From: a bacterium | GTDB lineage: Bacteria; NPL-UPA2; JAUVJM01 | NCBI GenBank assembly: GCA_030606215.1 | Contig: JAUWGW010000006.1 | Coordinates: forward strand, 2,207-66,206 | DNA: 64,000 nt | Direction: 5' to 3' | Shown: in pieces, positions 5,032 to 23,913 of the stretch | Layout of the letters: each line of letters starts with the position of its first letter | How positions within the stretch are numbered: position 1 is the first letter of the stretch | Notes under the pieces: generated by a model | Told to the model about the DNA's origin: nothing | What the model saw: the letters and a program-made list of their open reading frames with translations, nothing else | Database searches by the model: none | Position numbers and translations under genes: made by a program

Positions 5032-6367
5032 AGATTTAAAAAAAGATGCTCTGGCTTACATTTGCCCGCATTTTGCATCTAACACAGAACTTTCTAAAGG
5101 ACCAAAGATATTTGTCAAAGGAGAAGGCTGTTACGTTTATGATATAGAAGGAAACTGCTATCTGGATACCTTTGCATCTCTTCTCACCACAATATGCGGT
5201 CATAATCGCTCTGAGATAGCGAAGGTGGTTCAGGAACAAATGAAGCAGTTAGAGTTTTTCCCAAATTATGTGGATACTTTCACCGTGCCGCTTATAAAGT
5301 TGGCAAAGAAATTAGCTGAGATTACTCCAGGAGACCTTTCGGTCTCCTTCTTTGTTAACAGCGGTTCTGAAGCCTGTGAGACTGCCATAAAGATGGCAAG
5401 ACAGTACCACTTAGAAAAAGGAGAACGTTCAAGATATAAGATTATTGCAAGGAGATATTCTTATCATGGGACAACCCTGGGTGGCGTATCAGCCACTGGG
5501 ATACCATGGTTCAGGGAATATTTCGAGCCTCTACTTCCTGGATTTATCCATGTAATTGCTCCACATTGTTTCAGGATGGGACTTGAGCCAGATGAATGTA
5601 AAGAAATCTGCTTAAAGGCAATGGAGGAGACAATTCTCTGGGAGGGGCCTGAGTCAGTTGCGGCAGTTATCCTTGACCCTATTCCTGGTTCAAATATGGG
5701 TTATCCACTTCCTCCTGATGGGTATCTTCAGGGCATAAGAAAGATATGTAATAAATATGGGATTTTGCTTATTTTTGATGAAGTGCAGACTGGTTTTGGT
5801 AAGACAGGAAAAATGTTTGCTTGTGAACACTGGGATGTGACACCGGACATTATGGCTATTGGTAAAGGGTTTACTGGTGGATATATACCTCTGGCTGCAA
5901 CCATAACCACACCCGGGATATATGAAGTATTCAAGAAACCCGGTTCTGAATTCCGCAGCGGCAGCACATATGGAGGGCATACGACTGCATGTGCTGCTAC
6001 TCTTACTAATATAGATATAATTGAGAAGGAAAATCTTGTAGAAAAAGCGGCGGAGATGGGAAAGTATTTAAAAAGTAAATTGGAGGAACTATATAAGTAC
6101 AGAATAGTTGCAGATTTTCGTGGTATAGGGATGCTCTGGGCAATAGAACTGATGGCGGATAGAGAAAAGAGAAAGCCGCTTGATACAAAGCTCAATGTAG
6201 GCAGCTGGATAAGAGAATGGTGCTGGAAGAATAAGATGATTCTCAGGAATAATGCCGATATTCTCGTTATTGCACCTGCGCTTGTGATGACAAAAGACCA
6301 GATAGATGAAATGCTTGGCAAAATTGACCAGGCTATAGGAGAAGCAATTAAACAATTCAATCTGTGA
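5018..6367 (+). CDS. Class-III (omega) aminotransferase, PLP-dependent
   Basis: 449 aa. Motifs GSEACETAIKMARQY, ILLIFDEVQTGFGKTGKMFA and MAIGKGFTGGYIPLAA (PLP-binding Lys) are characteristic of the aspartate aminotransferase fold type I, class III. Overlaps the upstream gene by 14 nt. Confidence 0.8.
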   Translation: MSEIEDLKKDALAYICPHFASNTELSKGPKIFVKGEGCYVYDIEGNCYLDTFASLLTTICGHNRSEIAKVVQEQMKQLEFFPNYVDTFTVPLIKLAKKLAEITPGDLSVSFFVNSGSEACETAIKMARQYHLEKGERSRYKIIARRYSYHGTTLGGVSATGIPWFREYFEPLLPGFIHVIAPHCFRMGLEPDECKEICLKAMEETILWEGPESVAAVILDPIPGSNMGYPLPPDGYLQGIRKICNKYGILLIFDEVQTGFGKTGKMFACEHWDVTPDIMAIGKGFTGGYIPLAATITTPGIYEVFKKPGSEFRSGSTYGGHTTACAATLTNIDIIEKENLVEKAAEMGKYLKSKLEELYKYRIVADFRGIGMLWAIELMADREKRKPLDTKLNVGSWIREWCWKNKMILRNNADILVIAPALVMTKDQIDEMLGKIDQAIGEAIKQFNL

Positions 6368-7827: not shown

Positions 7828-7846
7828 AAATTGGGAGGGGTTGGGG

Positions 7847-8878
7847 ATGAAAAAGTTTCGTATTGGGATGATTCGTTGTGATACACATTCCTACTGGTAT
7901 GGAGCATTTATGGCAAAATGCGATATTGCGCTCTTGCAGAAAAACAGTGTTGCTGTCCATGATTACTTTTGCAGATTTAACGAACTGGCCATTTCGCTTG
8001 TTCCGGGACTTGAAATCGTCAGGGTATGGGATTATGATTCCGCTACGGCACAGAAATTCTCCGAGACATTTCTTGGCAAACCACAGGTCTGCGAAACAGT
8101 GGAGGAAATGACAGATGGTATTGATGCGGTGTTTATTGCTGATTCCACTGGAGATGGATCAGACCATCTGGAACTTGCTTCGCCTTTTTTGAAGAAGGGG
8201 ATACCTGCCTTTGTTGATAAGCCATTTGCTTCGAGGTTTAAAGATGCAAAGGCAATGGTGAGGCTGGCGAAGAAGAATGATGTGCCGCTTATGTCAGCAT
8301 CTTTATTGCAAGGATATACCGATACGGCGATAGAGTTTCGCCGTCGGTTCAAAGAGATCGGCCCTATCCAACTTGCGGTGAAAAAGGAAATAGAATTTCG
8401 CCGACGATTTAGAGAAACTAGCCCTATCCGACTTGCGGTGGTGAAAGGACTGACAAGCCTTGCCGGTGTCATTCACGGTATATCCATGGTGCAGGGCTTT
8501 TTCGGAGATGGTGTAGAGTGGGTGGAATGTATGGGTTCGCTTCCTCTGGAGTTCCTACTTCTGCATTATAAGAACGGGTTGCAAGCCATTGTGATGAGTC
8601 CTTCGAATGAGAGTTTTCACTACACCTGCTCCTTCCATTGTTCCGTCTATAGTAGGTTCGGTAAGATCCATAATCGTGGAGTTCTCCATATGCCACCCAT
8701 AGGTGATTTTGAATTTCCCACGGGCACACGGCGAATCGTACTTCAGTTTAAGCAGATGCTAAAAATACGTAAGCCTCCCATCCCTTATGAATTTCTACTT
8801 GAACTGATTGCTATCATGGATGCCGGAAGGATGGCTCAACAAAAAGGAAGGCGAATATATTTGAAGGATGTAAAATAA
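7847..8878 (+). CDS. Divergent Gfo/Idh/MocA-like protein, second paralog; contains an in-frame 2 x 20-aa tandem duplication
   Basis: N-terminus [20 protein letters not shown] and core [58 protein letters not shown] parallel 1957-3012. The GGGAGGGG RBS favours ATG at 7847; the track's 7841 is a TTG start. Confidence 0.5.
8330..8449 (+). repeat. In-frame imperfect tandem duplication, 2 x 60 nt, encoding [20 protein letters not shown] / [20 protein letters not shown]
   Basis: Direct comparison of 8330-8389 with 8390-8449 gives about 80% identity. The paralog at 1957-3012 has only one copy of the corresponding segment. Confidence 0.6.
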
Positions 8879-9623: not shown

Positions 9624-12374
9624 GTGCTTATAAAATCTGTATTGTTTGTTTGGTTAGCTCTTTGTTTTTCTTCTTTGGGTATCGCTGAAGAACAGGGGCT
9701 GGTAGCCTATTACGATTTTAACGAAGGCTCGGAGCTAATAGCACATGATAGGAGTGGAAATAAGAATGATGGGAAGATAATAGGAGCTACCTGGGTAAAG
9801 GGTAGATATGGCACTGCTTTAGAGTTTGATGGGATAAATGACTATGTTGACTGCGGGGAGAAACCAAGTTTTGATGTTAAAAATGTAGTTACCCTTGAGG
9901 CTTGGGTTTTACCTACGAAGGCCCCTTCTGGAGAACCAGCAATAGTAGGCAAAAAAATCTCCAGATATGCATTGACCTATTACAAAAATGGGAACTGTTA
10001 CTTCTATATATCTGCTGGTGTTAATCATTGTGTAGCTCGCCACCTTGCCGTTGGTGTTTGGCATCACATTGTAGCAACATTTGATGGAACAACAATGAAT
10101 CTGTACGTTGATGGAGATTTAAAGGACACTCGCACCTCACTTTACAAAACGATAGATAGTCGTGGTGGAAATCTTTTTATTGGCAAGCGGGATAACGATT
10201 ATTTCTGCGGCATAATTGACGAAGTTAGAATATATAATCGTACTTTATCCGAAGAAGAAATTCAAACCCATTATCAGTCAGATGCAAGAATGAAAAAAGC
10301 TGTAGTAAATAATAAAACCGGAACAGATACCATGACAAAATTCAGATATAGTCCTGATCAGAGAAGTGAACCCCTTCCACCCTGGCCGCCTGTAGAAGTG
10401 AGGAAGAGAAAAGTTATTGTATGGGGAAGAGAATACACCTTTTCTAATCTCCCTATCCCGGTCTCTATTATTTCTCAGGGGCAAGAGTTATTAGCTAGTT
10501 CTCCAAAGCTTGAAGTTCTGGTAGAGGGAAAACCGCTGGTATGGCAGCCAGTGCGAATTGAAAGAATTTCACCTGCGGTTGCCAAAGTAATTTCTCAGGG
10601 GAAAGCAGGAGACTTTCTAATTCAAGGAGAGAGCTTCGTTGAATTCGATGGGCTGGTCTGGGTTCAACTAAGGCTCAGTTGTACCCAGGAAAAGTTAGTC
10701 TCTATCAAAAATTTGAGCCTCAAAATTCCTCTGAAATCACCCCCAGTTCAGCTTTTTTCCCATCAGCTCGTTAGGACAGCTAATTTTCAAAGCTCGTTTC
10801 AGTTATTGACTACTCCAGAACAGTTCTATTACACTGGCGCATTGCCTCATGAAGGTTGGAAAGGAGAATTTACCCCACAGGTCTGGGTAGGAAATGTCGA
10901 TCGGGGACTGGCATGGATTAGTGAATCTCCACATTCATGGGAAATCGGTCATAAAGAAGCCGTATTGGAACTGATCCCAGACAGCAAAAAAGTGTGGCTG
11001 AACGTGACATTTGTATCAATTCCCATTAGATTGGAAAAGGAAAGGAATATAGAATTCGGACTAATGGCGACCCCTGTGAAACCTTGGCCAACTGATAGAT
11101 CTCTTTTGCGGGTATCCCATACTGGTGGGGGGGCTTTTGAAAAGCTCCGGGATACCTACATTATTCCGCGAAAGGAAGATGGAAAGACCGGACTTGACGA
11201 CTTTGCCAAGGAGGGGGTTCGTACGCTCGTCCTGTGGGACTACTACTCGGATGTCTGGGGGTTTCCAAAGATTGTCAGCTCTAAGAATAGAGAGTTTGCT
11301 AAGGCATTTGTACAGAAGGCACATAAGCTGGGTATTCGTGTCATGCCATATCAGGCTACGTTGCAGATCCTGCCCGAAAGACATCCTGAATTTGAGGAAC
11401 TCAAAAAGCGGTTTCAAGTTTATCCTCAGTGTGAAGAGAAGGGATATCACAAAGTTAAGCTAACAGATGACTTTATAATGTGGTATGCATCGCAAGCGGC
11501 AGCACATATGCGTGAATTTGACCTGGACGGTTACTACTTGGATACCTTTAATGACCCAGACCGTTTTAACCACAGTGATGTCGTAATGTATGATATACTG
11601 CAAACCCGAAAATTATACAAAGCCTTATATGAGATAGTTTACAAGGAAAAGGGTAAGCATGGCATTATTTTCCTTCATGATTCTGCACCGCCTCTATTTC
11701 CCCTGGCAAGTTTTTCTGACCTCCGCCTAACAGGTGAAATGCAATACTGGAGATTGGCTTTCCAGCACCTGACAAGAAGTAGCAATCCTTTGCTGCAGGC
11801 TATTCCACTTGAACAGATTCAGGTATGGGATATGGGGGAGGTTGTAGGGGTGCCAACGGTTTGGTGCTGGAAGCATCCCGACAAAGAGTATAGGGTGAGA
11901 ACCGGGTTGGATTTGCTAACATATAAGACTGGGGAGTTATTCGATACGGAGGAAGTGTTTAGCATTATGGGACTTTTTCACATACCAATTTTTGCTCGAC
12001 CTCTCTGGTGGCGATCCCCCAGCCCAGTGCCGAGAATGTCTCAGATATGGAAGCTGGAGGATGAATTTGGATTGCAGAATGCCAGATGGTACCCCTATTG
12101 GGAAAACGCAGGTCTCATTTCTGTCTCTCCCCCAGAAGTAAAAGTAAGCTTCTATCTCAAAGAAGACTGTTCATTACTAATGCATGTTGCTAATCTGGGA
12201 GAGAAGGAGAACATAACTCAGATTAAATTTACTAGCTCCTCCGGCCTGAAGAGCAAACGGTTTGAGATAATAAATGCTGTGGGAAGTTATCATGTTAGAG
12301 GAAGATTGGGGGGAGTGGAATTGAGATTACCTCCAGGTCAATCCACACTCTTGATGCTTCGGGTGAAGAAATAA
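9624..12374 (+). CDS. Secreted LamG/concanavalin-A-like lectin-domain protein with a large C-terminal domain of uncertain function (possibly glycoside-hydrolase-like TIM barrel)
   Basis: About 916 aa. GTG at 9624 has AAGGAGGG 7 nt upstream and yields a signal-peptide-like N-terminus (LIKSVLFVWLALCFSSLGIA). The LamG_3-like segment is GLVAYYDFNEGSELIAHDRSGNKNDGKIIGATWVKGRYGTALEFDGINDYVDCG...LYVDGDL. The track's ATG at 9564 is an alternative start. Confidence 0.55.
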   Translation: MLIKSVLFVWLALCFSSLGIAEEQGLVAYYDFNEGSELIAHDRSGNKNDGKIIGATWVKGRYGTALEFDGINDYVDCGEKPSFDVKNVVTLEAWVLPTKAPSGEPAIVGKKISRYALTYYKNGNCYFYISAGVNHCVARHLAVGVWHHIVATFDGTTMNLYVDGDLKDTRTSLYKTIDSRGGNLFIGKRDNDYFCGIIDEVRIYNRTLSEEEIQTHYQSDARMKKAVVNNKTGTDTMTKFRYSPDQRSEPLPPWPPVEVRKRKVIVWGREYTFSNLPIPVSIISQGQELLASSPKLEVLVEGKPLVWQPVRIERISPAVAKVISQGKAGDFLIQGESFVEFDGLVWVQLRLSCTQEKLVSIKNLSLKIPLKSPPVQLFSHQLVRTANFQSSFQLLTTPEQFYYTGALPHEGWKGEFTPQVWVGNVDRGLAWISESPHSWEIGHKEAVLELIPDSKKVWLNVTFVSIPIRLEKERNIEFGLMATPVKPWPTDRSLLRVSHTGGGAFEKLRDTYIIPRKEDGKTGLDDFAKEGVRTLVLWDYYSDVWGFPKIVSSKNREFAKAFVQKAHKLGIRVMPYQATLQILPERHPEFEELKKRFQVYPQCEEKGYHKVKLTDDFIMWYASQAAAHMREFDLDGYYLDTFNDPDRFNHSDVVMYDILQTRKLYKALYEIVYKEKGKHGIIFLHDSAPPLFPLASFSDLRLTGEMQYWRLAFQHLTRSSNPLLQAIPLEQIQVWDMGEVVGVPTVWCWKHPDKEYRVRTGLDLLTYKTGELFDTEEVFSIMGLFHIPIFARPLWWRSPSPVPRMSQIWKLEDEFGLQNARWYPYWENAGLISVSPPEVKVSFYLKEDCSLLMHVANLGEKENITQIKFTSSSGLKSKRFEIINAVGSYHVRGRLGGVELRLPPGQSTLLMLRVKK

Positions 12375-12393
12375 GATCGTTAAAAATGATCGG

Positions 12394-13710
12394 ATGATGT
12401 TAAAGAAGAAGTTTGCAGACATCAAATCACAGTCCTATTTTGACAGTGCCATTAGAACTCTATTCATAATACTGACAGCAAGCTCCATTTTTCTTTCTGG
12501 TTGTGGGAGGAAAGAGGAAGGCAAGGTCAGGTTAAAATATGCCATTTTCTCAACTCCGAAGTACATTCAGCTCGAGAAAGAACTGATTAAGGATTTTGAG
12601 AGTAAAAACCCTGACATAAAAGTAGAGTTGAGGACAGCGGGGTACGGGCTCCATCATGAAAAAATCCAGGTTGAGATAGTAGCCGGTATGGCTCCCGACC
12701 TCTGGCTTACTGATGGAGTTTATATCATGGAGTGGGCTGAACGCGGTGTCATAGAAGAACTGACAGAACTTTTTAATTCCAAGATGAAATCAGAAGAATA
12801 TTTCGGGCTGCAGGCATTAAGAGATCCGGAAGGTAGATTGTGGGGTATTCCAAAAGAAATCCAAACCTTCGGATTATTCTATAATAAGGACATTTTTGAC
12901 CGTTTCGGAGTCCAGTATCCGGACGATTCCTGGACATGGGATGAGGTTGTATGTGCCGCCAAATCGCTCACCAAGGATACAGATGGTGATGGAAGGGTAG
13001 ATATTTATGGATTTGGACAGGGAGTAGTTACTCTTATTTCAAACCTGATTTATCAATACGGTGGGTCCATACTGGATGAGAAACGCAGAAACTCGCTTCT
13101 CAATACACTTCCTGCACGACAAGCCATTGAATTTGGTCTCTCATTGTGTAAGCAAAAAGTCATGCCAACCCTTGCAGACAAGAGTACATTCAGCGAGCTA
13201 GAGATGTTTCGAATGGGAAAACTTGCCATGTGCATAGGAAATTATGCTTATGTAAATGAAATAGAGACGACTTTCAATTACTCAGTGGCCTTACCTCCAA
13301 AGAAGGTGAATCGCCGGTGCTACTATGACCCAAATGCTCTTGTCATAAGCCGGGGAAAATCCCAGGTTGTGAAGGATGCCGCCTGGAGGTATATTGAATA
13401 TCACTCCAGTTTGGAGGCGCAGATTAAACTCGGGAGGAGAGGAGAAGGACTGCCTTTTAACCGGAGAGCCGCCCTCTCAGTAGTAGATACTGAGGAAGCG
13501 AGGAAGCATAACCTCAAAGTATTTTATGATATGGTTGATGAGTCAGTTGACTATGATGTGAATGGATGCTGGAGGAAATGGAGAAGAGATGCATTTCAAA
13601 AAGAAATTGAAAAGGGGGCATTGGGAATAGTTCCTATAGAGGAGGTGCCAGATAACGCCCACAGGGAAGTGCAAAAGGTCCTTGATGCGTATTATGGAAG
13701 TGATTCATGA
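12394..13710 (+). CDS. ABC transporter substrate-binding lipoprotein (family 1, carbohydrate-type)
   Basis: 438 aa. Signal peptide plus lipobox (FLSGCG). GKVRLKYAIFSTPKY...FESKNPDIKVEL...MAPDLWLTDGVYIMEWAERGVIEELTELF is typical of sugar-binding proteins. There is no adjacent permease or ATPase gene. Confidence 0.7.
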   Translation: MMLKKKFADIKSQSYFDSAIRTLFIILTASSIFLSGCGRKEEGKVRLKYAIFSTPKYIQLEKELIKDFESKNPDIKVELRTAGYGLHHEKIQVEIVAGMAPDLWLTDGVYIMEWAERGVIEELTELFNSKMKSEEYFGLQALRDPEGRLWGIPKEIQTFGLFYNKDIFDRFGVQYPDDSWTWDEVVCAAKSLTKDTDGDGRVDIYGFGQGVVTLISNLIYQYGGSILDEKRRNSLLNTLPARQAIEFGLSLCKQKVMPTLADKSTFSELEMFRMGKLAMCIGNYAYVNEIETTFNYSVALPPKKVNRRCYYDPNALVISRGKSQVVKDAAWRYIEYHSSLEAQIKLGRRGEGLPFNRRAALSVVDTEEARKHNLKVFYDMVDESVDYDVNGCWRKWRRDAFQKEIEKGALGIVPIEEVPDNAHREVQKVLDAYYGSDS

Positions 13711-15245
13711 ACGAATACAAGTTATATTGGGGTGATTTACATACACATCTTGAGGATTTCGACAACAGCGATGCAATCCTTCGTGATGCCCAAGAGAACA
13801 TCGACTTTTGTGCCGTGCTCTGCTACCCATTTGCCTGGGAAAGAAAACGCGGATTGCTAGTTGAAAGTGTCAGGCAACGGCCGGAATTTCTTCAATGGTG
13901 GGAAAAACTCCGGGAGTTGGCTCGCACGCACCATCACCCCGGCCGCTTTGTCACCTTTCTGGGTTATGAATGGCATGGAAATCGAACACATTATGGTGAC
14001 CACAATGTGATCTATTTTGATGAAAATAATCCATTGGATGATGCATGGGCGTTAGAGGATCTGTACAGAAATCTACAGAAGCGCAGGGCAATTGCCATCC
14101 CTCACCACACGGGTTATTGTCGGGGATGGCGCGGTAAGAACTGGGATGTTTTTGACGAAAAGTTATCCCCTGTGATGGAGGTATTCTCTATACATGGCTC
14201 ATCCGAAGGTTGCAACACACCGTTTCCCCTGGAGCAGAATAGTAGCATGGGGCCCCGGACCACAGGCGGTACGCTTCACGATGCCCTCGCGCGGGGTTAT
14301 CAGGTTGGTGTTATTGGATCAAACGATGGTTCTGGACTTCCAGGTCGGTGGGGGATTGGACGGGCAGGTGTTTGGGCACGCGAGTGCACACGAGAAGCCA
14401 TCTGGGAGGCATTGCTGGCGCGCCGCACATATGCTACGACCGGAGATCGAATTAAGCTTGATTTTCAAATAAATGGTGCACCTATGGGATCAGTAATACA
14501 AAGAGATAGTTCAATAGATGCCGATGTAATCATTGAAGGCTCTCACGCCATTGACCGAGTAGAGTTATTGCAAAATGGATACGTTATTGATACATACTGC
14601 CACAGTGGTTGCTGGGAAGACCAAGTACAAAAATCCGGACGGTTCAAGGTTTTTATAGAAGCTGGCTGGGGACCTGCGGCACACTATGGATATCAGCCGA
14701 TGAATTGGAAGTGGTCGTGTCGTCTTGATGTTGAATTGGGTCGTTTAGTGAGTGTGGAGAGATGCTTTTCGCTTTTAGGTCAGAGAGTTAAGTCACATAG
14801 TGAGAGCCACTGTACTTGGGAGCTGACTACGGCAGGTCGTACAATCCGTAACAACCCCTTTGGAATGTGCCAGGGGATTGTCTTTGAGCTGGAGGGCGAC
14901 CTCAAGACACGGCTTCGTTTGCAGATGGAGGGGGTGACACTCGAGCTGTCAGTCGGGGATCTCATAAGAGGATCCCATGTGGTTCCGCTCGTGGAAGAAT
15001 CAAAACGCAGGGTGCAGGAGACCTTCGGCCTGGAGGAAAAGGAGTTGGGTAACTGTGATACATACTACTCCAATGCCCGAAAAATTAAACTGCACAAGGC
15101 AATTCCGGAGAGAGGTTACCGGGTCGCTCACACGTTTCGCAATCTCAATCTGACTAAGGGTCGCAATTACTTCTATGTAAGAGTGTCGCAGCTCAATGGG
15201 CAGTTGGCATGGTCATCGCCGATTTGGATGGACTCTAAGTCATGA
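13707..15245 (+). CDS. DUF3604/PHP-like metal-dependent hydrolase-fold protein (function unknown)
   Basis: 512 aa. N-terminus YWGDLHTHL...FLGYEWHG...IAIPHHTGY is rich in the His-containing motifs typical of PHP/DUF3604 proteins. Strong ORF. Its GC content is visibly higher than that of flanking genes. Confidence 0.4.
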   Translation: MNEYKLYWGDLHTHLEDFDNSDAILRDAQENIDFCAVLCYPFAWERKRGLLVESVRQRPEFLQWWEKLRELARTHHHPGRFVTFLGYEWHGNRTHYGDHNVIYFDENNPLDDAWALEDLYRNLQKRRAIAIPHHTGYCRGWRGKNWDVFDEKLSPVMEVFSIHGSSEGCNTPFPLEQNSSMGPRTTGGTLHDALARGYQVGVIGSNDGSGLPGRWGIGRAGVWARECTREAIWEALLARRTYATTGDRIKLDFQINGAPMGSVIQRDSSIDADVIIEGSHAIDRVELLQNGYVIDTYCHSGCWEDQVQKSGRFKVFIEAGWGPAAHYGYQPMNWKWSCRLDVELGRLVSVERCFSLLGQRVKSHSESHCTWELTTAGRTIRNNPFGMCQGIVFELEGDLKTRLRLQMEGVTLELSVGDLIRGSHVVPLVEESKRRVQETFGLEEKELGNCDTYYSNARKIKLHKAIPERGYRVAHTFRNLNLTKGRNYFYVRVSQLNGQLAWSSPIWMDSKS

Positions 15246-15246
15246 A

Positions 15247-16299
15247 ATGAAACAGGCAGAGGTCAAAAAAGCTTGGTTAACTGCAGGTAATCGAGCACGT
15301 GTCATAGCCACATTGAGTCATAAGAAATCAGACAAGGTGCCTTATAATGTAAGTTTTACCCGAAAGGCACGTGCTAAGATGATTGAATCTTATGGAGATC
15401 CTGATTTCGAATCAAAATTGGGAAATTGTCTGACAGTGATGCGTTGTGAGCCCAAAGATAGTTGGAAAGAGGTAAACCCCAATATTTGGGAGGACCAATT
15501 CAGAGTCCAGTGGAATCGGACCGTAGATAAAGATATAGGTGTGGTTTGTAATTGTTTAGTAACACCGGATAATATCAATGAATATGAATTTCCTGACCCA
15601 GATGATCCGTTAAGATATGATGATTATAACGAGATTATTAAAACAAAGAAAGATGGATTTTTTGTAGTAGCTCTCGGATTTAGCCTATTTGAAAGAGCTT
15701 GGACTCTCACCGGTATGGAGAATTTACTTATGGCGATGATCTCCGATAAGGATTTTGCCAATTCTTTGCTGGATAAGATTTTGGATTTCAATCTAAGAAT
15801 AATCGAAAATGCTTGCCTCTTTGATATTGATGCGATGATGTTTGGAGATGATTGGGGGCAGCAGACTGGTCTTATCATGGGCCCAAAACTTTGGCGGGAA
15901 TTTATCAAGCCTCGTATCAAACAGATGTATGAGTTAGTAAAATCAAAGGGCAAATTCGTCTTCATCCATTCTTGCGGCAAAGTGGATGAAATATTTCCAG
16001 ATTTGATAGATTGTGGTGTGGATGTATTTAATCCGTTTCAACCTGAGGTAATGAATGTATTTGAGATGAAGAAGAGATATGGTAGTTCACTAAGTTTCTA
16101 TGGTGGTATCAGCACCCAGCGGACTTTACCCTATGGGACTGTCACTGAGGTGAAAGACGAAGTCAAGCGACTGCTCGATGTTATCGGGGAAAATGGGGGT
16201 TACATTGCAGCTCCTGCACACGCTATACCAGCTGATGCAAAGCCCGAAAACATTGCTGCCATGATAGAAGTTTTACAACATCAATTTCCACAAATATGA
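15247..16299 (+). CDS. Uroporphyrinogen-decarboxylase (URO-D/MtaA-like) family protein
   Basis: About 350 aa from ATG 15247, the first codon after the stop of the upstream gene. The C-terminal region LWREFIKPRIKQMYELVKSKGKFVFIHSCGKVDEIFPDLIDCGVDVFNPFQPEV...YIAAPAHAIP fits the URO-D/methylcobamide:CoM methyltransferase fold. Confidence 0.55.
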   Translation: MKQAEVKKAWLTAGNRARVIATLSHKKSDKVPYNVSFTRKARAKMIESYGDPDFESKLGNCLTVMRCEPKDSWKEVNPNIWEDQFRVQWNRTVDKDIGVVCNCLVTPDNINEYEFPDPDDPLRYDDYNEIIKTKKDGFFVVALGFSLFERAWTLTGMENLLMAMISDKDFANSLLDKILDFNLRIIENACLFDIDAMMFGDDWGQQTGLIMGPKLWREFIKPRIKQMYELVKSKGKFVFIHSCGKVDEIFPDLIDCGVDVFNPFQPEVMNVFEMKKRYGSSLSFYGGISTQRTLPYGTVTEVKDEVKRLLDVIGENGGYIAAPAHAIPADAKPENIAAMIEVLQHQFPQI

Positions 16300-16414
16300 A
16301 GATTGGATTAGCTTGAAGTTTGATAGATGACATTTTTGACTTGCAATAACAGTAATGTCATTTACTACTTGTGATGAGAGGAAAAAGCTACATCAAGTTT
16401 CGAAACATGATGGG

Positions 16415-16479
16415 TTAATGATGATGTTGTCTATCAATCTTGTTTTGCCGATCCACACGGCGAGAGCTATGAGCACAGC
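16415..16479 (-). pseudogene. Relic copy of the panC 3' terminus (last ~20 codons); about 83% identical to 18443-18507
   Basis: Aligned by eye: ttaatgatgatgttgtctatcaatcttgttttgccgatccacacggcgagagctatgagcacagc versus ttgacgataatgttgtctatcagtcttgttttaccaatccacacggcaatggcgatgaggacagg. The minus-strand translation gives ...LIALAVWIGKTRLIDNIIIN, parallel to the real PanC C-terminus. Confidence 0.45.
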
Positions 16480-16645
16480 TTCAAAGTGTAGTAAAGTAAA
16501 CTATTCTTGATTATTCATTATTTAAATCTAACACAGGAATTCCGCAACTAAAAAACTTTTCTTGTAATCCACCATAAACTGGCACTTAAGTGCCCAATCT
16601 GTTGGAGGAGCAAATCCGCATTGATTTTTTTCTAACAGGATTTTC

Positions 16646-16673
16646 TTGACGGGGGGTGGGAGTGAGTGATAAT
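16646..16673 (+). promoter_or_regulatory. Putative sigma70-type promoter (TTGACG-16nt-GATAAT) for the 16747-18412 gene pair
   Basis: Read directly: ttgacg ggggggtgggagtgagt gataat. It lies about 75 nt upstream of ATG 16747. Confidence 0.3.
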
Positions 16674-16746
16674 ATCAGTTACTGGGGAAGACGGTCTCTG
16701 GAGTCAAAAGGTGGTATTAGCCTGCGTTAATTTGGAGGGAAGAGAC

Positions 16747-17697
16747 ATGGATTTAGTTTCTACGATAGAAGGTTCACTATTAGAAGGGTTTTTCCCTGAA
16801 GGTTGGGATTTGAAAAAATTGGATGAGTGCTGTAACAATGCACCTGAATCCATCACAGAATCTCAGGAATGGTGGCATTCTGATTTCAGACCTGTTCCCT
16901 GTGAGGATTTATCAGAGTTTAACACACTGATGGGACATGAAATAGCTCTCAGAATAAAGGAGAGTAAAGAGGAGGGAAAGAAGATAATTTTTATTCTTCC
17001 GGTAGGTCCAATGGGAATGTATAAATGGGCGGTATACTTCTTAAAAGAGTGGGGAGTGGATTGTAAACATGTCTATGGATTCAATATGGATGAATGGAGT
17101 GATGGGAAGGGAAATACTTTGCCTTCTGATAATCCCGGCGCATTTCAAAATGCTATGGAGGCGGCTTTCTATGGACCTTTAGGGGAATTAACTGTGCCGG
17201 CGGAACAGCGGCATTTTGCTGCTAAAGATGTTTTGCCTGCCTATCCGGAGAAAATAGCAAAACTCAAGCAGGAAGGAGCGCAACTCGTAGTTGTCTTTGG
17301 TATAGGCAGAATTTTCCATATTGCTTTCTGGGAACCACATTTTGCCGCTGAGTTTAAAACGGAAGAGGAGTGGAAGAACCAGAGTTACAGATTGGGCGCC
17401 AAGCTCCATCCATTAACTATAGAGCAGAATGCTATTACCAGTTTCAAAAGTAGAACTACACTGGTTCCCTGTTTTGCCAATACCATAGGTCCCGGTATAT
17501 TTCTTGAGGCGGATTGGATTATAGGGGGTTGTGATGGTAGTTTAGGTCGTGGTATGATGTGGCAGGGGTTATCGTTATGGGTAACCTTAAGGCATGGTCC
17601 AAGTATCTGGATACCGTCAAGTTTTATGCCGACATTACCAGGCAAACTCTTCTTCCTCAAGGAATTGGCAGGTCCATTAGAAGCAGAATGTAACTAA
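16747..17697 (+). CDS. Glucosamine-6-phosphate deaminase/6-phosphogluconolactonase (NagB-like) fold protein, tentative
   Basis: About 316 aa from ATG 16747, which has GGAGGG 6 nt upstream; the track's 16666 start precedes the [20 protein letters not shown]...GFNMDEW...[16 protein letters not shown] resembles the NagB/SOL fold. Paired with a PIG-L deacetylase. Confidence 0.4.
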
Positions 17698-17710
17698 TGG
17701 AGGATTACGC

Positions 17711-18412
17711 ATGAACATCTTAGCTGTGGGGGCTCATCCTGATGATCTGGAGATTCTTTGTGCCGGGACGCTGGCGAAGTATTCCCGGGATGGACATAGG
17801 GTAAGCATGGCACATCTCTGTAATGGTAACAAGGGACATCACCATATTCCACCAGATGAGCTGGCTAAAATTAGAGATAAAGAAGCTGCTTCTTCCGCTA
17901 AGATAATTGGGGCTGAGCACATCAACCTTGGTATAGAAGACCTGGATGTTTATCTGGAGCGGGAGCAGGTCTTAGCGTGTGTGGAATTGATTAGAAGGAC
18001 AAAACCGGATGTGATTATTACCCATTCGCCAGATGATTATATGCCTGACCACACTGTGACTTCAAGTTTGATATTTAATGCCAGTTTCATTGCTACCTTG
18101 CCTCATACGAAGACTGAAAGTAAGTATTTTGAAAAAATAACCCCGCTTTATTATATGGATACCGTGGCCGGGGCTAAATTTCATCCTACTGAGTATGTGG
18201 ATACCTCTGATACCTTTGCCATCAAGAAAAAGATGCTTTCCTGTCACCAGAGCCAGTTAAAGTGGCTTAGCGAGCATGATAAGGTTGACATACTGGAGTT
18301 TATAGAAGTAGTTGCCAGGTTTAGAGGATTGCAATGTGGTGTTTTGTATGCAGAAGGTTTTCGGAAAGCTGAAGTTTGGGGTAGGAATGTTACAAAAAGG
18401 TTCCTGCCATAG
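17711..18412 (+). CDS. PIG-L/LmbE-family N-acetylglucosaminyl deacetylase
   Basis: 233 aa. ILAVGAHPDDLEILCAGTLAKY...H...DVIITHSPDDYMPDH carries the AHPDDxE and HxxH motifs of the PIG-L family. GGAGGA RBS. Confidence 0.75.
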   Translation: MNILAVGAHPDDLEILCAGTLAKYSRDGHRVSMAHLCNGNKGHHHIPPDELAKIRDKEAASSAKIIGAEHINLGIEDLDVYLEREQVLACVELIRRTKPDVIITHSPDDYMPDHTVTSSLIFNASFIATLPHTKTESKYFEKITPLYYMDTVAGAKFHPTEYVDTSDTFAIKKKMLSCHQSQLKWLSEHDKVDILEFIEVVARFRGLQCGVLYAEGFRKAEVWGRNVTKRFLP

Positions 18413-18435
18413 AAGTCTTCACATCCAAATGACTA

Positions 18436-19281
18436 TTATAAATTGACGATAATGTTGTCTATCAGTCTTGTTTTACCAATCCACACGGCAATGGCGATGA
18501 GGACAGGTTTATCTATACCGGCTATCTCCTGAAGATTTTCAGGGTCAACTATTGTAATATAATCAATCCGTGCGAGTTTTTCACTCTCTATCATTTCGGT
18601 TATTTCTTTTCTTATGAATTTCAATAACTTGTCTCCCCTAATTATTTCATCCTTCGCTTTGAGGAGCGCTCTGTATAAAACTGTCGCGGCTTTTCTCTCC
18701 TCCTCATTCAGATACGCATTTCTGGAACTCATCGCAAGTCCATCTTTCTCCCGAACAGTTGGACAAACGTGTATTTCCACACCCATATTCAAATCGGATA
18801 CCATCTTTTTGATAATAACGACCTGCTGTGCATCTTTCTGCCCGAAATAGGCAGTGTCAGGTTCAATCAGATTGAATAATTTCGCAACAACGGTTGTTAC
18901 GCCGCGAAAATGTGCCGGGCGGTTCTTCCCGCACATTACCTTGCTTAGACCTTCCACTTCAACAAAGGTAGAATAACCAGATGAATACATCTCCGAAACA
19001 TCCGGAGCAAAGATAAAATCAACCTTTCCCCTTTCTGCTATTACTTCATCTCTATTCAAATCTCTCGGGTAACGTTCATAGTCCTCGCTTGGGTCAAACT
19101 GGGTTGGGTTGACAAATATGCTAACTATGAGAACATCACACTTCTTTCTTGCTTCTCTAATTAAACTTAAGTGACCTTCGTGAAAATACCCCATTGTTGG
19201 AACCAGAGCGATAGATTTCCCGTCTCTTTTAGCTTCACGCACAATTCCTCTCATCTCAGCGGCTGTTTTGACTGTCTTCAC
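18436..19281 (-). CDS. panC: Pantoate--beta-alanine ligase
   Basis: [22 protein letters not shown]... is the PanC signature. GTG at 19281 (GGAGGAGG RBS) gives an N-terminal length matching E. coli PanC. ATG at 19254 or the track's 19308 are alternatives. Confidence 0.9.
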   Translation of the reverse strand: MKTVKTAAEMRGIVREAKRDGKSIALVPTMGYFHEGHLSLIREARKKCDVLIVSIFVNPTQFDPSEDYERYPRDLNRDEVIAERGKVDFIFAPDVSEMYSSGYSTFVEVEGLSKVMCGKNRPAHFRGVTTVVAKLFNLIEPDTAYFGQKDAQQVVIIKKMVSDLNMGVEIHVCPTVREKDGLAMSSRNAYLNEEERKAATVLYRALLKAKDEIIRGDKLLKFIRKEITEMIESEKLARIDYITIVDPENLQEIAGIDKPVLIAIAVWIGKTRLIDNIIVNL

Positions 19282-20020
19282 TTTCCTCCTCCGATTCAAG
19301 AGCGGCAATTACAATCTCAACCTCGTGGATTCTGTCTTCTATTGGCGGGTGAGTACTCAAAAAAGTTATCTGCACACCCCTTGCCTGCTCCCCGAGCTTT
19401 TCAAGAACACTTATCATTGCGTGGGGGTCATACCCGCTTTGGTGTGTATAAATTGTCCCGAGACGGTCAGCTTGAAATTCATCTTTTCTGCTGTATCCAA
19501 GAATGATTAGTGTGAAGATGTCATCTGCAATTTGTTGTACTTGCCTTGCTTCAGTTTTGTCGCCAAGAACAGCTAAGGCAAGGGTAGCCGCAAGCTGGTA
19601 TCCGAAAACAGACTGGATTCTCTTAATCCCATGTCTTGCTGCTACATGTCCAGTCTCGTGACCGAGAATAGCGGCGAGTTCCGGTTCATCAACAATATCC
19701 AGGAGCCCTTTGTATATATAGATAAAGCCGCCTGGCAGGGCAAAGGCATTGATTTCAGGTGAATTTATTGCTTTGAAACTGTAAGGTATGTCGGGACGGT
19801 GAGAATTACTTGCCACAAGTTGACCAATTCTATTGACTCTACTATCCTCGTATGCCTCATTTTCCTTTTCAATCTGTTCAGCGACCTTTTTCCCGAGTGC
19901 AATTTCCTGCTCAACGGTATATAGAGTCCGCTCTTCTCTCCTGGTGACTGGATTGTAGACAGTAGCGCAACCGAGGAGGGAGATGAGGAGGAGGGATACG
20001 ATGCAATTTGCAGTTTTCAT
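19256..20020 (-). CDS. M48-family zinc metallopeptidase lipoprotein
   Basis: 254 aa. Signal peptide plus lipobox (LLGCAT). The HETGH motif (HEXXH) is in a ...AFALPGGFIYIYKGLL...AAILGHETGHVAARH context typical of M48 (BepA/LoiP-like) peptidases. Confidence 0.75.
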   Translation of the reverse strand: MKTANCIVSLLLISLLGCATVYNPVTRREERTLYTVEQEIALGKKVAEQIEKENEAYEDSRVNRIGQLVASNSHRPDIPYSFKAINSPEINAFALPGGFIYIYKGLLDIVDEPELAAILGHETGHVAARHGIKRIQSVFGYQLAATLALAVLGDKTEARQVQQIADDIFTLIILGYSRKDEFQADRLGTIYTHQSGYDPHAMISVLEKLGEQARGVQITFLSTHPPIEDRIHEVEIVIAALESEEESEDSQNSR

Positions 20021-20415
20021 GGAACTGTACTCAGTTCAAGAAGGCTTTCTTCAGCGAAAATTGGAGCCTCAGCACGAAGTGCGAGAGCTATACCATCACT
20101 TGGACGAGCGTCAACTTCCTTGCTTCGTCCATCGCCTGTCCTCAATATAAGTTTTGCGAAAAATGTCCCCTGACGGAGTTTATGAATTACTACCATTTCA
20201 AGTTCGGCTTCAAGTTCCCTGATGGTATTCCGCAAAAGGTCGTGTGTCAGAGGACGCGGCAGTTCTACTCCGCTTATCTTAAGTCTTATAGCATCAGCTT
20301 CGTGCACACCAATGACGATAGGGAGGACCCGGCTGCCATTCTTCTCTCTCAGTATGATAAGCTGGTCTCTCCTCTTATCATCTATCCTGATTCTGAAAAG
20401 TTCCATTTTAACCAC
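20017..20415 (-). CDS. Bifunctional nuclease (BFN/DUF151) family protein
   Basis: 132 aa. VLPIVIGVHEADAI...ARPSDGIALALRAEAPIF matches the DUF151 core. Its stop overlaps the ATG of the downstream M48 gene (ATGA). Confidence 0.6.
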   Translation of the reverse strand: MVKMELFRIRIDDKRRDQLIILREKNGSRVLPIVIGVHEADAIRLKISGVELPRPLTHDLLRNTIRELEAELEMVVIHKLRQGTFFAKLILRTGDGRSKEVDARPSDGIALALRAEAPIFAEESLLELSTVP

Positions 20416-20894
20416 TTTTTCCCACCTCCCTTCTCAATTAGCAATTCTCTAATTGTCTGCCCTGACAGGGGTGAGCGCAAATCAGGAGCAATTTCTGCCA
20501 GAGGCACAAGGACAAAACTTCTTCTCTCAAGTTCCCGATGGGGGACCTGAAGTTCTTCCTCTTTTACGAGAAGGTCGCCGTAGAGGAGAATATCAAGGTC
20601 AATTATTCTTGGGCCAAAGTGCCTCCCTTCAGTCCTGCCAAGTTTTTTCTCCAATTTCTTCACGCAGTCCAGAAGTTCCGCGGGCGTGAGAACCGTTTCT
20701 ATCTCAGCCGCGCAATTCACAAACTTTGGCTGGTTGAGCACTTCCTCAGGTTCTGTCTCATAGAGAGAAGAAACTCTGCATACCTTAATCTTGACTGTCT
20801 CGCGCAGTGATTTAATTGCATTTCTGATATTTTCTATACGATTCCCGAGATTTGACCCAAGTCCAAGATATACTTTCACCCACTTCTCTTCCAC
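20382..20894 (-). CDS. folK: 2-amino-4-hydroxy-6-hydroxymethyldihydropteridine pyrophosphokinase
   Basis: VKVYLGLGSNLGNRIENI...GPRIIDLDILLYGD is the HPPK signature. GTG at 20879 (GTGA overlap with the dapL stop) is a likely alternative to the track start at 20894. Confidence 0.85.
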   Translation of the reverse strand: MEEKWVKVYLGLGSNLGNRIENIRNAIKSLRETVKIKVCRVSSLYETEPEEVLNQPKFVNCAAEIETVLTPAELLDCVKKLEKKLGRTEGRHFGPRIIDLDILLYGDLLVKEEELQVPHRELERRSFVLVPLAEIAPDLRSPLSGQTIRELLIEKGGGKKWLKWNFSESG

Positions 20895-22048
20895 ACAGCA
20901 ATCCTTTCCACTGCTTCCTCTAATTTTTTCTTATCTATCGTCAAACTCATTCGTATGAATCCATCGCCATTTTCACCAAATCCTACTCCTGGTGTTGTGG
21001 CAACTCCTGCTCTCTCAAGGAGAGATAACACCAAACGCATGGAGCTATATCCTAAGAGAACAGGAGCCCATATGTAAAATGTAGCTTTTGGTTTTGGAAT
21101 ATCCCATCCTATTCTCTTCAACCCGTTGACAAATGTGTCTCTACGTTCCTGATAAATTTTCAGAGTCCTCTTTATCTCTTCCTGGGAACCGTTCAGAGCT
21201 TCTATCCCTGCCCATTGAATTGCCTGAAATATGCCTGAATCAAGATTGGTTTTAACTTTTCCGAGCCCGCTGATGATTTTGCTGTTGCCAACGATAAACC
21301 CTATCCGCCAGCCGGTCATATTATATGTTTTAGAAAGAGAATGAAATTCCACTCCAATTTCTTTTGCCCCATCCACCTCAAGGAAACTCGGAGCGATGTA
21401 ACCATCATAACAGATTTCAGAATAAGCCGCATCATGACATACGATTATGTTGTGTCTTTCAGCAAAATTCCGAACCTCCGAGAAAAAAGTTCTGTCTGCA
21501 ATCGCAGATGTTGGATTGTTTGGATAATTGAGAAACATCATCTTTGCTTTCTTCGCTATCGTTTCAGGGATACTGCTCAAATCTGGCAGGAAATTGTTTC
21601 CCGGGAGTAGAGGCATTGAGAAACATTTCCCACCGGCAAGTGTAATGCCTGCGCGATATACAGGATAACCCGGATCCGGAATAAGAGCAATATCCCCCTC
21701 GTTTATTACGGCAAGTGGAATATGCCCGATCCCTTCCTTTGACCCTATAAGAGGGAGAATTTCAAGTTCCGGGTCAAGCTCTACTCCAAACCTCTTTTTA
21801 TACCATGCGGCAAGACTTATTCTCAACTCTAACAAACCTTTGTAAGACGCATAACGGTGATTTTCATGCCTGGTGGAGAATTTCTGAAGAGAGCTTACAA
21901 TGTGTTCAGGAGTAGCTATGTCAGGGTCACCTACACCGAGATCAATAATGTCAACTCCCTTCCCTCTAACTTCTCTCTTCATCTCATCAAGTTTGGCAAA
22001 AAGATAGGGGGGCAGTTTTTTAAGCTTGTCTGAAAACTCAATATTCAT
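20876..22048 (-). CDS. dapL: Class I/II PLP aminotransferase, probable LL-diaminopimelate aminotransferase
   Basis: 390 aa. KLKKLPPYLFAKLDEMKREVRGKGVDIIDLGVGDPDIATPEHIV and SLSKTYNMTGWRIGF (PLP Lys) are present. It overlaps dapB by an ATGA junction, and no dapD/dapC/dapE is present in the cluster. The DapL assignment rests on context. Confidence 0.6.
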   Translation of the reverse strand: MNIEFSDKLKKLPPYLFAKLDEMKREVRGKGVDIIDLGVGDPDIATPEHIVSSLQKFSTRHENHRYASYKGLLELRISLAAWYKKRFGVELDPELEILPLIGSKEGIGHIPLAVINEGDIALIPDPGYPVYRAGITLAGGKCFSMPLLPGNNFLPDLSSIPETIAKKAKMMFLNYPNNPTSAIADRTFFSEVRNFAERHNIIVCHDAAYSEICYDGYIAPSFLEVDGAKEIGVEFHSLSKTYNMTGWRIGFIVGNSKIISGLGKVKTNLDSGIFQAIQWAGIEALNGSQEEIKRTLKIYQERRDTFVNGLKRIGWDIPKPKATFYIWAPVLLGYSSMRLVLSLLERAGVATTPGVGFGENGDGFIRMSLTIDKKKLEEAVERIAVWKRSG

Positions 22049-22845
22049 TGTTTTATAACATCCTGCATGTCATATAGTCCAGAACCTGCACCTGCTATAA
22101 ATCTTATTGCTTTTATCACTCCTCTAACGAAAACCTCCCGACTTTCTGCACGATGTATCAATTCCACTCTTTCACCTGCTCCAGCAAAAATTACATTGTG
22201 TTCGCCGGTGACACTTCCGCCACGCACAGCATGTATTCCAATTGCCCCTGTTTTTCTCTCTCCTGTAGTTCCCTTGCGACCATATACTGCAATTTCTTTC
22301 AAGCTTTTGCCTCTTGCCTCTGCAATAATTCCTGCCAACTTCAACGCTGTCCCACTCGGAGCATCTTTTTTCATACGATGATGGGTTTCCACAATTTCTA
22401 CATCATATTCAGTCCCGAGGATTTTTGCCGCCTCACCTGCTATCTTAAATAGGAGGTTCACCCCGATACTCATATTTGGTGAAAGAAGCACCGGGATTTT
22501 TGAACTAAAATTTTTTATCCTCTCCTTTTCTTCGTCACTAAAACCTGTTGTCCCGATAACAACCCCATTATTTTTCTCCACTGCTGCTGGTAGATGGGAG
22601 AGTGCTGCACGAGGGGTGCTGAACTCAACAAGAATATCCCCGCCACTTATAACTTTCTCCATGTCATCCACAAGCAAGATACCAGATTTAACCAAACCTA
22701 TTACTTCTCCAACATCCTTATTGAGAAACGGGTGTTCTTTCTTTTCAACTGCTCCGGCAAGTTCCATGTCGTCTTCTTCAGTCACTGCTTGCAGGAGCAG
22801 TTTCCCCATCTGTCCACCTGCTCCGCTTATAACTACCCTTACCAT
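22045..22845 (-). CDS. dapB: 4-hydroxy-tetrahydrodipicolinate reductase
   Basis: MVRVVISGAGGQMGKLL (Rossmann) and EIVETHHRMKKDAPSGTA (DapB signature) are present. Confidence 0.9.
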   Translation of the reverse strand: MVRVVISGAGGQMGKLLLQAVTEEDDMELAGAVEKKEHPFLNKDVGEVIGLVKSGILLVDDMEKVISGGDILVEFSTPRAALSHLPAAVEKNNGVVIGTTGFSDEEKERIKNFSSKIPVLLSPNMSIGVNLLFKIAGEAAKILGTEYDVEIVETHHRMKKDAPSGTALKLAGIIAEARGKSLKEIAVYGRKGTTGERKTGAIGIHAVRGGSVTGEHNVIFAGAGERVELIHRAESREVFVRGVIKAIRFIAGAGSGLYDMQDVIKQ

Positions 22846-22854
22846 TTTCCCTCC

Positions 22855-23913
22855 TCACTTATATGCAAGCGTATCCCAGTATGCGTCATTTGCGAGTCTT
22901 TCCCCAATATCCACTTCATAAGCTTTCTCTATCGGTTCTAATATCTGCGGATTTTTCTCCCAGACCAGCTTTGCGGCATTGCGGACAATCTCTACACCAG
23001 CGCGGGTCATTTTGCCGAGAGGCGGACGACACAGCCCCGCAGGCATTCCAAGACCGTTCATCAATGTTTTTATTGGAAGCGGGTTCCTGAATTTATCTTC
23101 AACAGCTACTTTTCTTTTCCGCGATAGAGTTCTCTCATTCTTGCATTTGACAGTCACTATTCCGAATAGCGGCTGAAGCGCTTCTTGAATTGCTCTTGCT
23201 TCAGCCTGTTCGCCGGCAATGACCTTCCTTGTCATTTCCTCAATAGCCCCCGGGACAACATTTGAAATTACAGAGATAACACCTGAAGATTTAATCTTTG
23301 GATTAATCATCATCTCAAATGTCAGGTCATCATCACCTGAGAGAATGTCAAAATCTTCCCCTATAAGTTCTCTTGTCCTCTTCATCCGCTGCAGATTACC
23401 TGTTGCCTCTTTCACAGCCCGTACATTTGGGCATTCCTGTGAAAGAATTGCAAGGTCCTCGGGACTAATGGCAGTTCCAGTCCGCCCAGGGATTACATAA
23501 GGTATAATGTAGATCTCAGGGCAGGTTTGAGCTATTTTCGCATAGTACTCCCTACGGAGTTCTATAGATGATGGTCCATTATAGTAACAATCTATGAGAA
23601 GCACAGATTCAATTCCTACCTCCTTTGCTTTCCTTGTCGCTTTGAGTGCTTCTTCCGTAGAATTACTCCCAGCCCCTGCTATAACACCACACCTTTTCTG
23701 GGAAAGGTCCAAACAGTTACTTATCACCTGCGTATGCTCCTCCCAGATAAGTGTTGGAGATTCTCCGGTTGTCCCTACAGGAAGGACCCCGGTTATGCTC
23801 TGTGAAATCTGGAACTCAATGTTCTTTTGAAACCCCTCCCAATCAATTTCATTCTCCTCTGTGAATGGTGTCACAAGAGCAGTCCATGCCCCTTCAAACT
23901 TCAATCTGCTCAT
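22855..23913 (-). CDS. dapA: 4-hydroxy-tetrahydrodipicolinate synthase (DapA/NAL family) with an extended C-terminal region
   Basis: WTALVTPF, VLPVGTTGESPTL and an active-site K context are present. At 352 aa it is about 55 aa longer than a typical DapA. Confidence 0.8.
   Translation of the reverse strand: MSRLKFEGAWTALVTPFTEENEIDWEGFQKNIEFQISQSITGVLPVGTTGESPTLIWEEHTQVISNCLDLSQKRCGVIAGAGSNSTEEALKATRKAKEVGIESVLLIDCYYNGPSSIELRREYYAKIAQTCPEIYIIPYVIPGRTGTAISPEDLAILSQECPNVRAVKEATGNLQRMKRTRELIGEDFDILSGDDDLTFEMMINPKIKSSGVISVISNVVPGAIEEMTRKVIAGEQAEARAIQEALQPLFGIVTVKCKNERTLSRKRKVAVEDKFRNPLPIKTLMNGLGMPAGLCRPPLGKMTRAGVEIVRNAAKLVWEKNPQILEPIEKAYEVDIGERLANDAYWDTLAYK

Follow-up and report, generated by a model that had tools for sequence, protein, structure and literature searches.

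Homology-facilitated illegitimate recombination (HFIR) has been described for Acinetobacter, Streptococcus pneumoniae and Pseudomonas stutzeri, and the single-crossover products seen in E. coli conjugation are related to it. A model in which one end of the incoming DNA is anchored by homology while the other is joined illegitimately, and in which 3' gene ends are displaced, has been set out for C-terminal displacement arrays, for which HFIR is the proposed mechanism (PMC5361080). Duplications of the homologous segment after single-crossover integration have been sequenced and measure 109-950 bp (PMC3240628). A similar outcome can be reached by a dedicated enzyme: integrase-mediated insertion of prophage e14 at icd leaves a 163-bp pseudo-icd (PMC6379469). 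Here we describe a locus that can be set beside these cases. It lies in a stretch of 64,000 nt from an uncultured bacterial lineage (NPL-UPA2; positions 2,207 to 66,206 of contig JAUWGW010000006.1, assembly GCA_030606215.1), which we refer to as the window. In this window the 3' end of panC, the vitamin-B5 gene for pantoate--beta-alanine ligase, occurs twice, once as the end of the resident gene and once as a diverged relic, and between the two copies lies an insert of about 2 kb that carries an amino-sugar gene pair, a NagB-like gene and a PIG-L deacetylase gene. We put the probability at roughly 0.55 that this repeat is a non-functional recombination scar, left by a one-sided homologous exchange with DNA from a relative whose other end was joined illegitimately.

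Within positions 11000-23000, a repeat finder recovers the panC-end repeat as the sole long direct-repeat family: 16415-16481 and 18443-18509 align without gaps over 67 nt, of which 55 are identical (82%), at a spacing of 2028. A diagonal scan gives one ungapped register at that same offset, with adjacent offsets at background level, and MAFFT concurs; compared by blastn with the whole window, the panC end finds the second copy with 52/62 identities (E = 1.5e-14), the runner-up having E = 0.55. The longest exact runs common to both copies, inside this 82% identical 67-mer, are 13, 11 and 9 nt. Copy B (18443..18509, minus strand) comprises the final 22 codons of the resident panC. The relic (16408..16475, minus strand; 16415-16481, or copy A, in the repeat finder) consists of the codons VLIALAVWIGKTRLIDNIIINP followed by TCA at the stop-codon position, where the resident gene has TAA. 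Translated in the panC frame on the minus strand, the relic reads ..VLIALAVWIGKTRLIDNIIINP and the resident end ..VLIAIAVWIGKTRLIDNIIVNL*, so that the peptide VLIALAVWIGKTRLIDNIIIN is still legible in the relic, whose reading frame is broken upstream of the V codon. At the outer edge of copy A, ~6 nt (16476-16481) probably belong to a promoter remnant, described below, and not to panC. The panC/PIG-L/NagB-like side of the arrangement is identical in an independent Logan assembly (L179). A sequence-only reading of this DNA had reported the repeat, with its coordinates, an identity of about 83% and the shared peptide, and had raised a panC relic as one reading of the second copy; repeat finder, blastn, diagonal scan, MAFFT and translation all bear this out. 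Its account of the gene content, a NagB-like gene and a PIG-L deacetylase on the strand opposite panC, agrees with the open reading frame (ORF) and domain evidence, and its argument that the divergence speaks against a trivial assembly repeat is likewise supported.

Over the 21 codons that derive strictly from panC, relic and resident gene differ at 12 nt and at 2 amino acids, both differences being conservative (I/L and V/I) and both falling at positions that vary among panC genes; there are no indels and no internal stops. Such mostly synonymous or conservative divergence is the pattern that a pseudogene descended from a functional allele would carry. In a simulation that placed random substitutions on the resident sequence, the probability of at most 2 amino acid changes together with no stop was 2e-5 for 12 unconstrained changes, 1.4e-3 for 9 and 0.047 for 6. 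At most of the differing sites, the relic base is a state present in other functional panC alleles. Moreover, over the shared 55-66 nt the panC genes of three other loci in our sample (L010, L180 and L001) are on par with the resident gene in their similarity to the relic, and across a 55-nt core the relic is 87% identical to the L010 panC and 84% identical to the resident. Because the differences are mostly synonymous and the relic lies as near to the panC of other lineages as to that of its own genome, we read it as a fragment of a diverged functional (xenologous) allele, and not as the outcome of slow decay after a local duplication. The two copies would then have diverged mainly as working genes in separate lineages, with the truncation of the relic being recent relative to that divergence. 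The divergence had earlier been taken as the mark of an old insertion, an argument that fails on this pattern of synonymous change and of variant states shared with functional alleles: flanking copies may have diverged before the event, so that their divergence alone does not date it as old.

Upstream, the relic abuts a second fragment, which derives from the promoter region of a gene that we call p103 (our own name for a conserved gene of 103 amino acids). This remnant occupies 16476..16518 on the minus strand. Searched against all fetched loci, its positions 16498-16518 match 8735-8755 of L012 exactly over 21 nt (E = 8e-5), and that match lies immediately upstream of p103. When the minus strand of the window from 16545 to 16440 is compared with the regions upstream of p103 in L012, L008 and L010, homology begins at ATGAATAATCAAGAATAGTTT, runs through a decayed -35 element (TTTACT in the window instead of TTGACG) and extends to ..GAAGCTGTGCT. 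Past GAAGCTGTGCT, the relatives continue with AATATCC..GTGAAATGG, which holds the -10 element and the p103 start codon, while the window continues with CATAGCTCTCGCCGTGTGG, which is panC; the -10 element is thus cut at the joint. Exactly where the homology switches, the p103 promoter and the panC end have GTGCT.ATA in common, which argues that the repeat unit is bounded on its outer side by a microhomology joint of a truncated p103 promoter to a truncated panC end. HFIR would be expected to leave just such a joint, made illegitimately at a short shared sequence, on one side of the foreign segment. The p103 gene itself is absent from the window. In the relatives (8790-9101 in L012, 1151-1462 in L008 and 7722-8024 in L010) it encodes a conserved Cys-containing protein (VKWFVRL...CDKCGEK...) that has no family assignment, behind a conserved extended -10 promoter.

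The insert is itself composite. The sole ORFs in 16482-18442 are the NagB-like gene and the PIG-L gene, both on the plus strand. The NagB-like gene (16747..17697) encodes 316 amino acids from its true start at ATG 16747 and is a distant relative of glucosamine-6-phosphate deaminase; its TIGR00502 match lies far under the cut-off, it has no Pfam hits, and its homologues are all about 316 amino acids long and 75-90% identical. The PIG-L/LmbE-family deacetylase (17711..18412; 233 amino acids; PF02585) is BshB1-like yet under the cut-off, and is 85% identical to its counterpart in L018; the gene is convergent with panC, their stop codons lying 23 nt apart. Upstream of the NagB-like gene, and in frame with its ORF, lies a third fragment (16674..16725, plus strand), in which the 3' end of a Gfo/Idh/MocA oxidoreductase gene survives as a relic. 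This 52-nt stub matches the gene that precedes the NagB-like gene in L018, an ORF with matches to PF02894/PF22725, at 46/52 nt and 17/17 amino acids, so that all 6 nucleotide differences over the 17 codons are synonymous, again the pattern of a pseudogene derived from a functional allele. To its left the similarity does not extend, the local alignment score there being below the shuffle mean. Elsewhere, the NagB-like/PIG-L pair occurs between ymdB and queH (L016), after the Gfo/Idh/MocA oxidoreductase (L018) and after a 710-amino-acid protein (L181), and in L182 the order is PIG-L then NagB-like, between PSP1 and RNase G. The L018-type stub, taken together with these unrelated contexts, indicates that the pair was cut out of an oxidoreductase/NagB-like/PIG-L operon before or on reaching the site downstream of panC.

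A spacer of 155 nt (16519..16673) separates the promoter remnant from the stub, and a predicted sigma-70-like promoter on the plus strand (TTGACG-16-GATAAT, 16646-16673), which directly precedes the stub, probably drives the NagB-like/PIG-L pair. The spacer also contains a perfect 14-nt palindrome, GGCACTTAAGTGCC, at 16581-16594, which is matched nowhere else and could be an operator or a weak hairpin. Rfam gives no match at E <= 1 for the spacer or for the leader of the NagB-like gene, and none around the region when gathering scores are applied. Two flanks, the 115 nt that lead from the URO-D-like stop to the relic and the 23 nt that part the PIG-L stop from that of panC, match nothing significantly in the fetched loci or elsewhere in the window. 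Two further observations concern the NagB-like protein. In the public record its product has 343 amino acids and starts at GTG 16666, with its first 27 codons traversing the oxidoreductase stub; this start is probably over-extended by those 27 codons, as the homologues have ~316 amino acids and begin with MDL (ATG 16747). The identity of 75-90% spans contigs labeled Elusimicrobia, Omnitrophica, Ratteibacteria, Firestonebacteria, TA06 and Bryobacterales, which suggests either that the protein is unusually well conserved across phyla or that it has spread very widely by horizontal transfer; it is usually paired with a PIG-L deacetylase, although that partner is sometimes only ~38% identical (L016, L182).

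Read along the panC strand, the order of the locus is the body of panC, its present end, the antisense PIG-L and NagB-like genes, the spacer, the cut p103 promoter, the relic, 108 nt measured from the relic's former stop position, and then, convergently, the end of the URO-D-like gene and its array. The resident panC (18436..19308, minus strand; PF02569, E = 1.6e-112) is the last gene of its own array. Its longest ORF, from TTG 19308 (290 amino acids), shares 53 nt (19256-19308) with the M48 peptidase gene upstream; the true start is probably GTG 19281, giving 281 amino acids as in the database copy. On the other side, the URO-D/MtaA-like gene (15196..16299, plus strand; PF01208, with NCBIfam MtaA/CmuA under the cut-off) is the last of a long plus-strand sugar-utilization array.

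To place this order in context, we located panC homologues of 67-82% amino acid identity on the contigs of relatives, sampling seven distinct relatives. The array upstream of panC is conserved (L001, L005, L010, L011 and L012) and comprises arginine/diaminopimelate genes, an aminotransferase, HPPK, a bifunctional nuclease (BFN) and the M48 peptidase. The content downstream of panC differs from lineage to lineage: a RACo-type protein in L001, LacI with giant glycoside hydrolases in L004, GidA in L005, aldolase II in L180, aldolase II, a URO-D-like gene and UxaE followed by p103 in L010, and aldolase II, UxaE, a 338-amino-acid gene and a canonical NagB followed by p103 in L012. In L008/L009, p103 itself follows 72 nt after panC, as compared with a panC-to-p103 distance of 3-4 kb in L010 and L012. 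In this clade, panC and p103 thus bracket a variable slot of sugar-metabolism genes, which L008/L009 seem to show in its empty state. In L010 (4261-4264) and L012 (4325-4339) the panC stop region shares 4-15 nt with a convergent class-II aldolase gene, and in L180 that gene lies ~95 nt past the panC stop; the last 5-10 codons of panC differ in length and sequence in every lineage. Such lineage-specific last codons, together with the aldolase overlap, suggest that the recombination boundary of the slot seems to lie inside the panC end. The URO-D gene near panC in L010, faint as a family match, was considered as an orthologue of the URO-D-like gene of the window and rejected, there being no tblastn hit at 1e-5. 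In 80 metagenome loci with homologues of the window's URO-D-like gene, tblastn gave scattered weak hits in which panC, PIG-L and the array genes are not recognizable, and the NagB-like query had zero hits there. A panC search of genome contigs was uninformative on close synteny, since among the matches listed (at least 600 stretches) the relatives have at most 57% identity.

No mobile-element machinery accompanies the unit. Integrase or transposase domains are absent from the 39 window ORFs scanned, which include the insert and its neighbors; the repeat finder returns no inverted repeats at the ends of the unit; no tRNA or tmRNA target lies near it, the sole tRNA being at 61314-61403, some 43 kb off; and none of the seven relatives carries this unit at panC. 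Insertion of a transposon or insertion sequence was rejected on the lack of a transposase and of terminal inverted repeats, with a repeat that is 67 nt long and diverged. No tyrosine or serine recombinase gene marks an end of the insert, as it would in a site-specific element, and with exact runs of only 13, 11 and 9 nt a short attachment (att) core is conceivable and nothing marks one. These results bear on what the sequence-only reading had made of the locus. Its proposal of an insertion that left a panC relic was essentially right, and the ~2 kb between the copies does behave as one unit at the panC 3' end; what it lacked was that the relic appears to be a xenologous fragment, that the joint is to a promoter remnant and that the insert is a patchwork. 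Of the integrase or att-like motifs that it had suggested looking for there is no sign, and at the outer boundary stands the microhomology joint instead. Its synteny check, which asked whether panC directly follows the URO-D-like gene in related genomes, has no simple answer: everything downstream of panC varies in the relatives, and in none of those sampled does the URO-D-like gene adjoin panC.

From these observations we infer a one-sided homologous event and, with less confidence, its direction. A donor segment from a related genome would have carried a panC end, the PIG-L gene, the NagB-like gene (already with its oxidoreductase stub) and the first part of a p103 promoter. On one side it would have been exchanged through panC homology; on the other, the broken end in the p103 promoter would have been joined illegitimately to panC at GTGCT.ATA, ~22 codons before the stop. 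The product would be a 2,028-bp insertion flanked by the last ~64-67 nt of panC in two versions; of these, one completes the working gene and the other is stranded as a relic beside the URO-D-like gene. An equivalent route would have the fragment circularize at the same microhomology and integrate by a single crossover in the panC end. In either form the process would be HFIR, with no involvement of a site-specific recombinase.

A crossover within panC would predict both a shift of affinity along the resident gene and a relic nearer to the L010 type than the present end is, and there are indications of each. A maximum chi-square analysis with 134 informative sites and 7 comparison alleles places a break between panC positions 720 and 747 (18535..18562 of the window, minus strand; permutation p = 0.005), 26-53 nt upstream of the repeat boundary. 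On the 5' side of this break the resident panC groups with L008/L010/L012/L180, and on the stop-ward side it is outgroup-like and closest to L001. Across the 55-nt core, the relic is 87% and the resident end 76% identical to L010. We regard a mosaic breakpoint in the resident panC as suggestive only. The direction we favor takes the relic as the native end, since displaced, and would have the current end of panC arrive with the cassette; it stands only moderately above its alternative.

Several points weigh against this reconstruction. The evidence for direction is small, amounting to 87% versus 76% over a 55-nt core and to a neighboring segment of 59 nt, and over positions 721-779 L010 and the resident gene stand equally far from the L008 group. 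The shift in affinity could also arise if the 3' end is derived in the group used for comparison, whose members L010, L012 and L180 have the aldolase gene abutting or overlapping panC. Neither the pre-insertion state, with the URO-D-like gene directly convergent on panC, nor the donor state (panC, PIG-L, NagB-like, p103) was recovered in the relatives sampled. The 155-nt spacer has no similarity to any fetched locus or to the rest of the window. Finally, a second assembly of the relic junction was sought and none was found, and the 51-amino-acid ORF that spans the junction is missing from the protein collection.

The same joint can be read in the opposite direction, with panC, PIG-L, the NagB-like gene and the p103 promoter native and the URO-D sugar array imported from a relative in which it was convergent on panC; the import would have brought the donor's last ~64 nt of panC, joined them to the recipient's p103 promoter and replaced p103 and whatever lay beyond. 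An order of panC, cassette and p103 promoter does fit the synteny of the clade, a donor from the group is plausible given that the relic resembles panC genes such as that of L010 (87%), and the relic tail (INP) with the following ~30 nt resembles the end and flank of the L001 panC. However, this version requires a second, unseen joint beyond the left edge of the window, gives no reason to expect the change of affinity over the final ~100-125 nt of the resident panC, and has to contend with the finding that 0/80 loci with URO-D-like homologues have panC nearby; we hold it to be unlikely, though worth keeping in mind. An in situ tandem duplication reaching from the panC 3' end to the p103 promoter, with the downstream copy decayed and partly deleted or overwritten, would need no foreign DNA, and the end of a segment joined to its own start is the classic novel junction. 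Microhomology-mediated duplications are common, which counts in favor of this account. Against it, copies that were identical at the start would be unlikely to reach 18% divergence with 2 conservative amino acid changes and no indel if they evolved neutrally (p about 0.001-0.05, depending on the model), the relic is no nearer to the resident than to other lineages, and no second cassette, promoter or p103 gene was found after the relic. A tandem duplication is therefore improbable in our judgment.

The remaining explanations seem weaker still. A diverged, mostly synonymous 3'-end duplicate flanking an insert is just what e14 leaves at icd (PMC6379469), and the unit might accordingly be the remnant of a site-specific integrative element that targeted the panC 3' end, supplied a replacement gene end and later lost its integrase. 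Yet neither the 2 kb nor the window ORFs tested contain an integrase, an excisionase or any other gene of a mobile element, the longest identical core is 13 nt, the outer boundary is accounted for by a chromosomal promoter remnant that is present at the same locus in relatives, and the cargo is two metabolic genes that occur in housekeeping contexts elsewhere, which leaves such an element very unlikely. Equally small is the chance that two co-occurring related strains were misjoined in a metagenome-assembled contig. The window belongs to a 73-kb NCBI contig whose metagenome origin is deduced from L179, an assembly of a Logan read run; a single sample can contain several related lineages (one assembly yielded L001, L005 and L016), and the relic junction lacks a second assembly. 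Assemblers, however, join at long exact homologous overlaps and do not link a promoter to the middle of a gene through a microhomology of 5-9 nt; the independent Logan assembly shows the right-hand junction as well, and Logan also has records of the identical URO-D-like and PIG-L proteins. Least probable of all, and close to negligible, is a functional relic, acting, for example, as RNA complementary to the 3' end of the panC mRNA or serving the URO-D operon as terminator or spacer: the relic does lie on the plus-strand transcript path between the URO-D-like and NagB-like genes and is 82% complementary to the panC message, but it has no Rfam match and no terminator-like structure on the plus strand, and its conservation follows codons and not structure.

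A more ambitious possibility, which we consider doubtful, is that the panC-p103 interval is a lineage-specific cassette-exchange site at which related uncultured bacteria would repeatedly swap sugar-catabolism modules, independently of any recombinase, through short stretches common to the panC end and the p103 promoter (GTGCT.ATA), the relic being a captured intermediate. If true, this would be an exchange site functionally analogous to an integron platform, with no integrase or attC sites.

Elsewhere in the window, two tandem-like pairs, each an MttB-superfamily gene followed by a Gfo/Idh/MocA oxidoreductase, lie at 501-3012 and 6364-8878, separated by an E1 alpha/beta dehydrogenase and a class-III aminotransferase. 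The same-strand array of 16 kb also includes a GH123-like enzyme, an N-methyl/DUF1559 protein, a solute-binding protein, a DUF3604 protein and the URO-D/MtaA-like gene, and is an unusual catabolic cluster to which no substrate is assigned. Further along, an AAA_14/DUF4143 ATPase gene (55149-56465) lies a few kb from the tRNA-Ser gene (61314-61403), and an ABC/AbiEii-like ATPase gene follows at 62600-63829; this may be a small defense or accessory region, separate from the panC relic.

Taken as a whole, we regard the locus as an ordinary recombination scar in an uncultured lineage, produced by a known mechanism and with no evident function. Its value is that of a base-resolved natural example in which the end of a housekeeping operon would have served as the homologous anchor for capturing foreign metabolic genes with no mobile-element machinery, and it would gain in interest should exchange turn out to recur at the panC-p103 slot. 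For annotation, the short panC-like stretch beside the URO-D-like gene should not be called a gene.

Each of the described systems shares part of this arrangement. As at icd, where e14 is integrated (PMC6379469), and as with other integrative elements that bring a substitute 3' end for their target gene, a diverged direct repeat of a 3' gene end flanks an insert, and the gene remains in working order, its amino acid sequence changed little or not at all; unlike e14, the panC unit has no integrase and nothing that marks an att core, its cargo is 2 kb of metabolic genes, and its far boundary is a chromosomal promoter remnant. At the C-terminal displacement arrays of Rhs, contact-dependent inhibition (CDI) and type VI secretion system (T6SS) effector loci, likewise, a conserved gene receives a new 3' end from incoming DNA, and its old one is left orphaned downstream. 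These arrays differ in that panC encodes a housekeeping biosynthetic enzyme whose new end encodes essentially the same peptide, that neither toxin/immunity logic nor diversifying selection is involved, and that there is a single relic instead of an array. A further parallel is with HFIR itself. The panC case is read from a natural genome and not observed in an experiment, and the homology between its alleles is only about 80-90%; what the two would have in common is a homologous anchor at one end with an illegitimate joint at the other, no need of a dedicated recombinase, and the possible part-duplication of the homologous segment.

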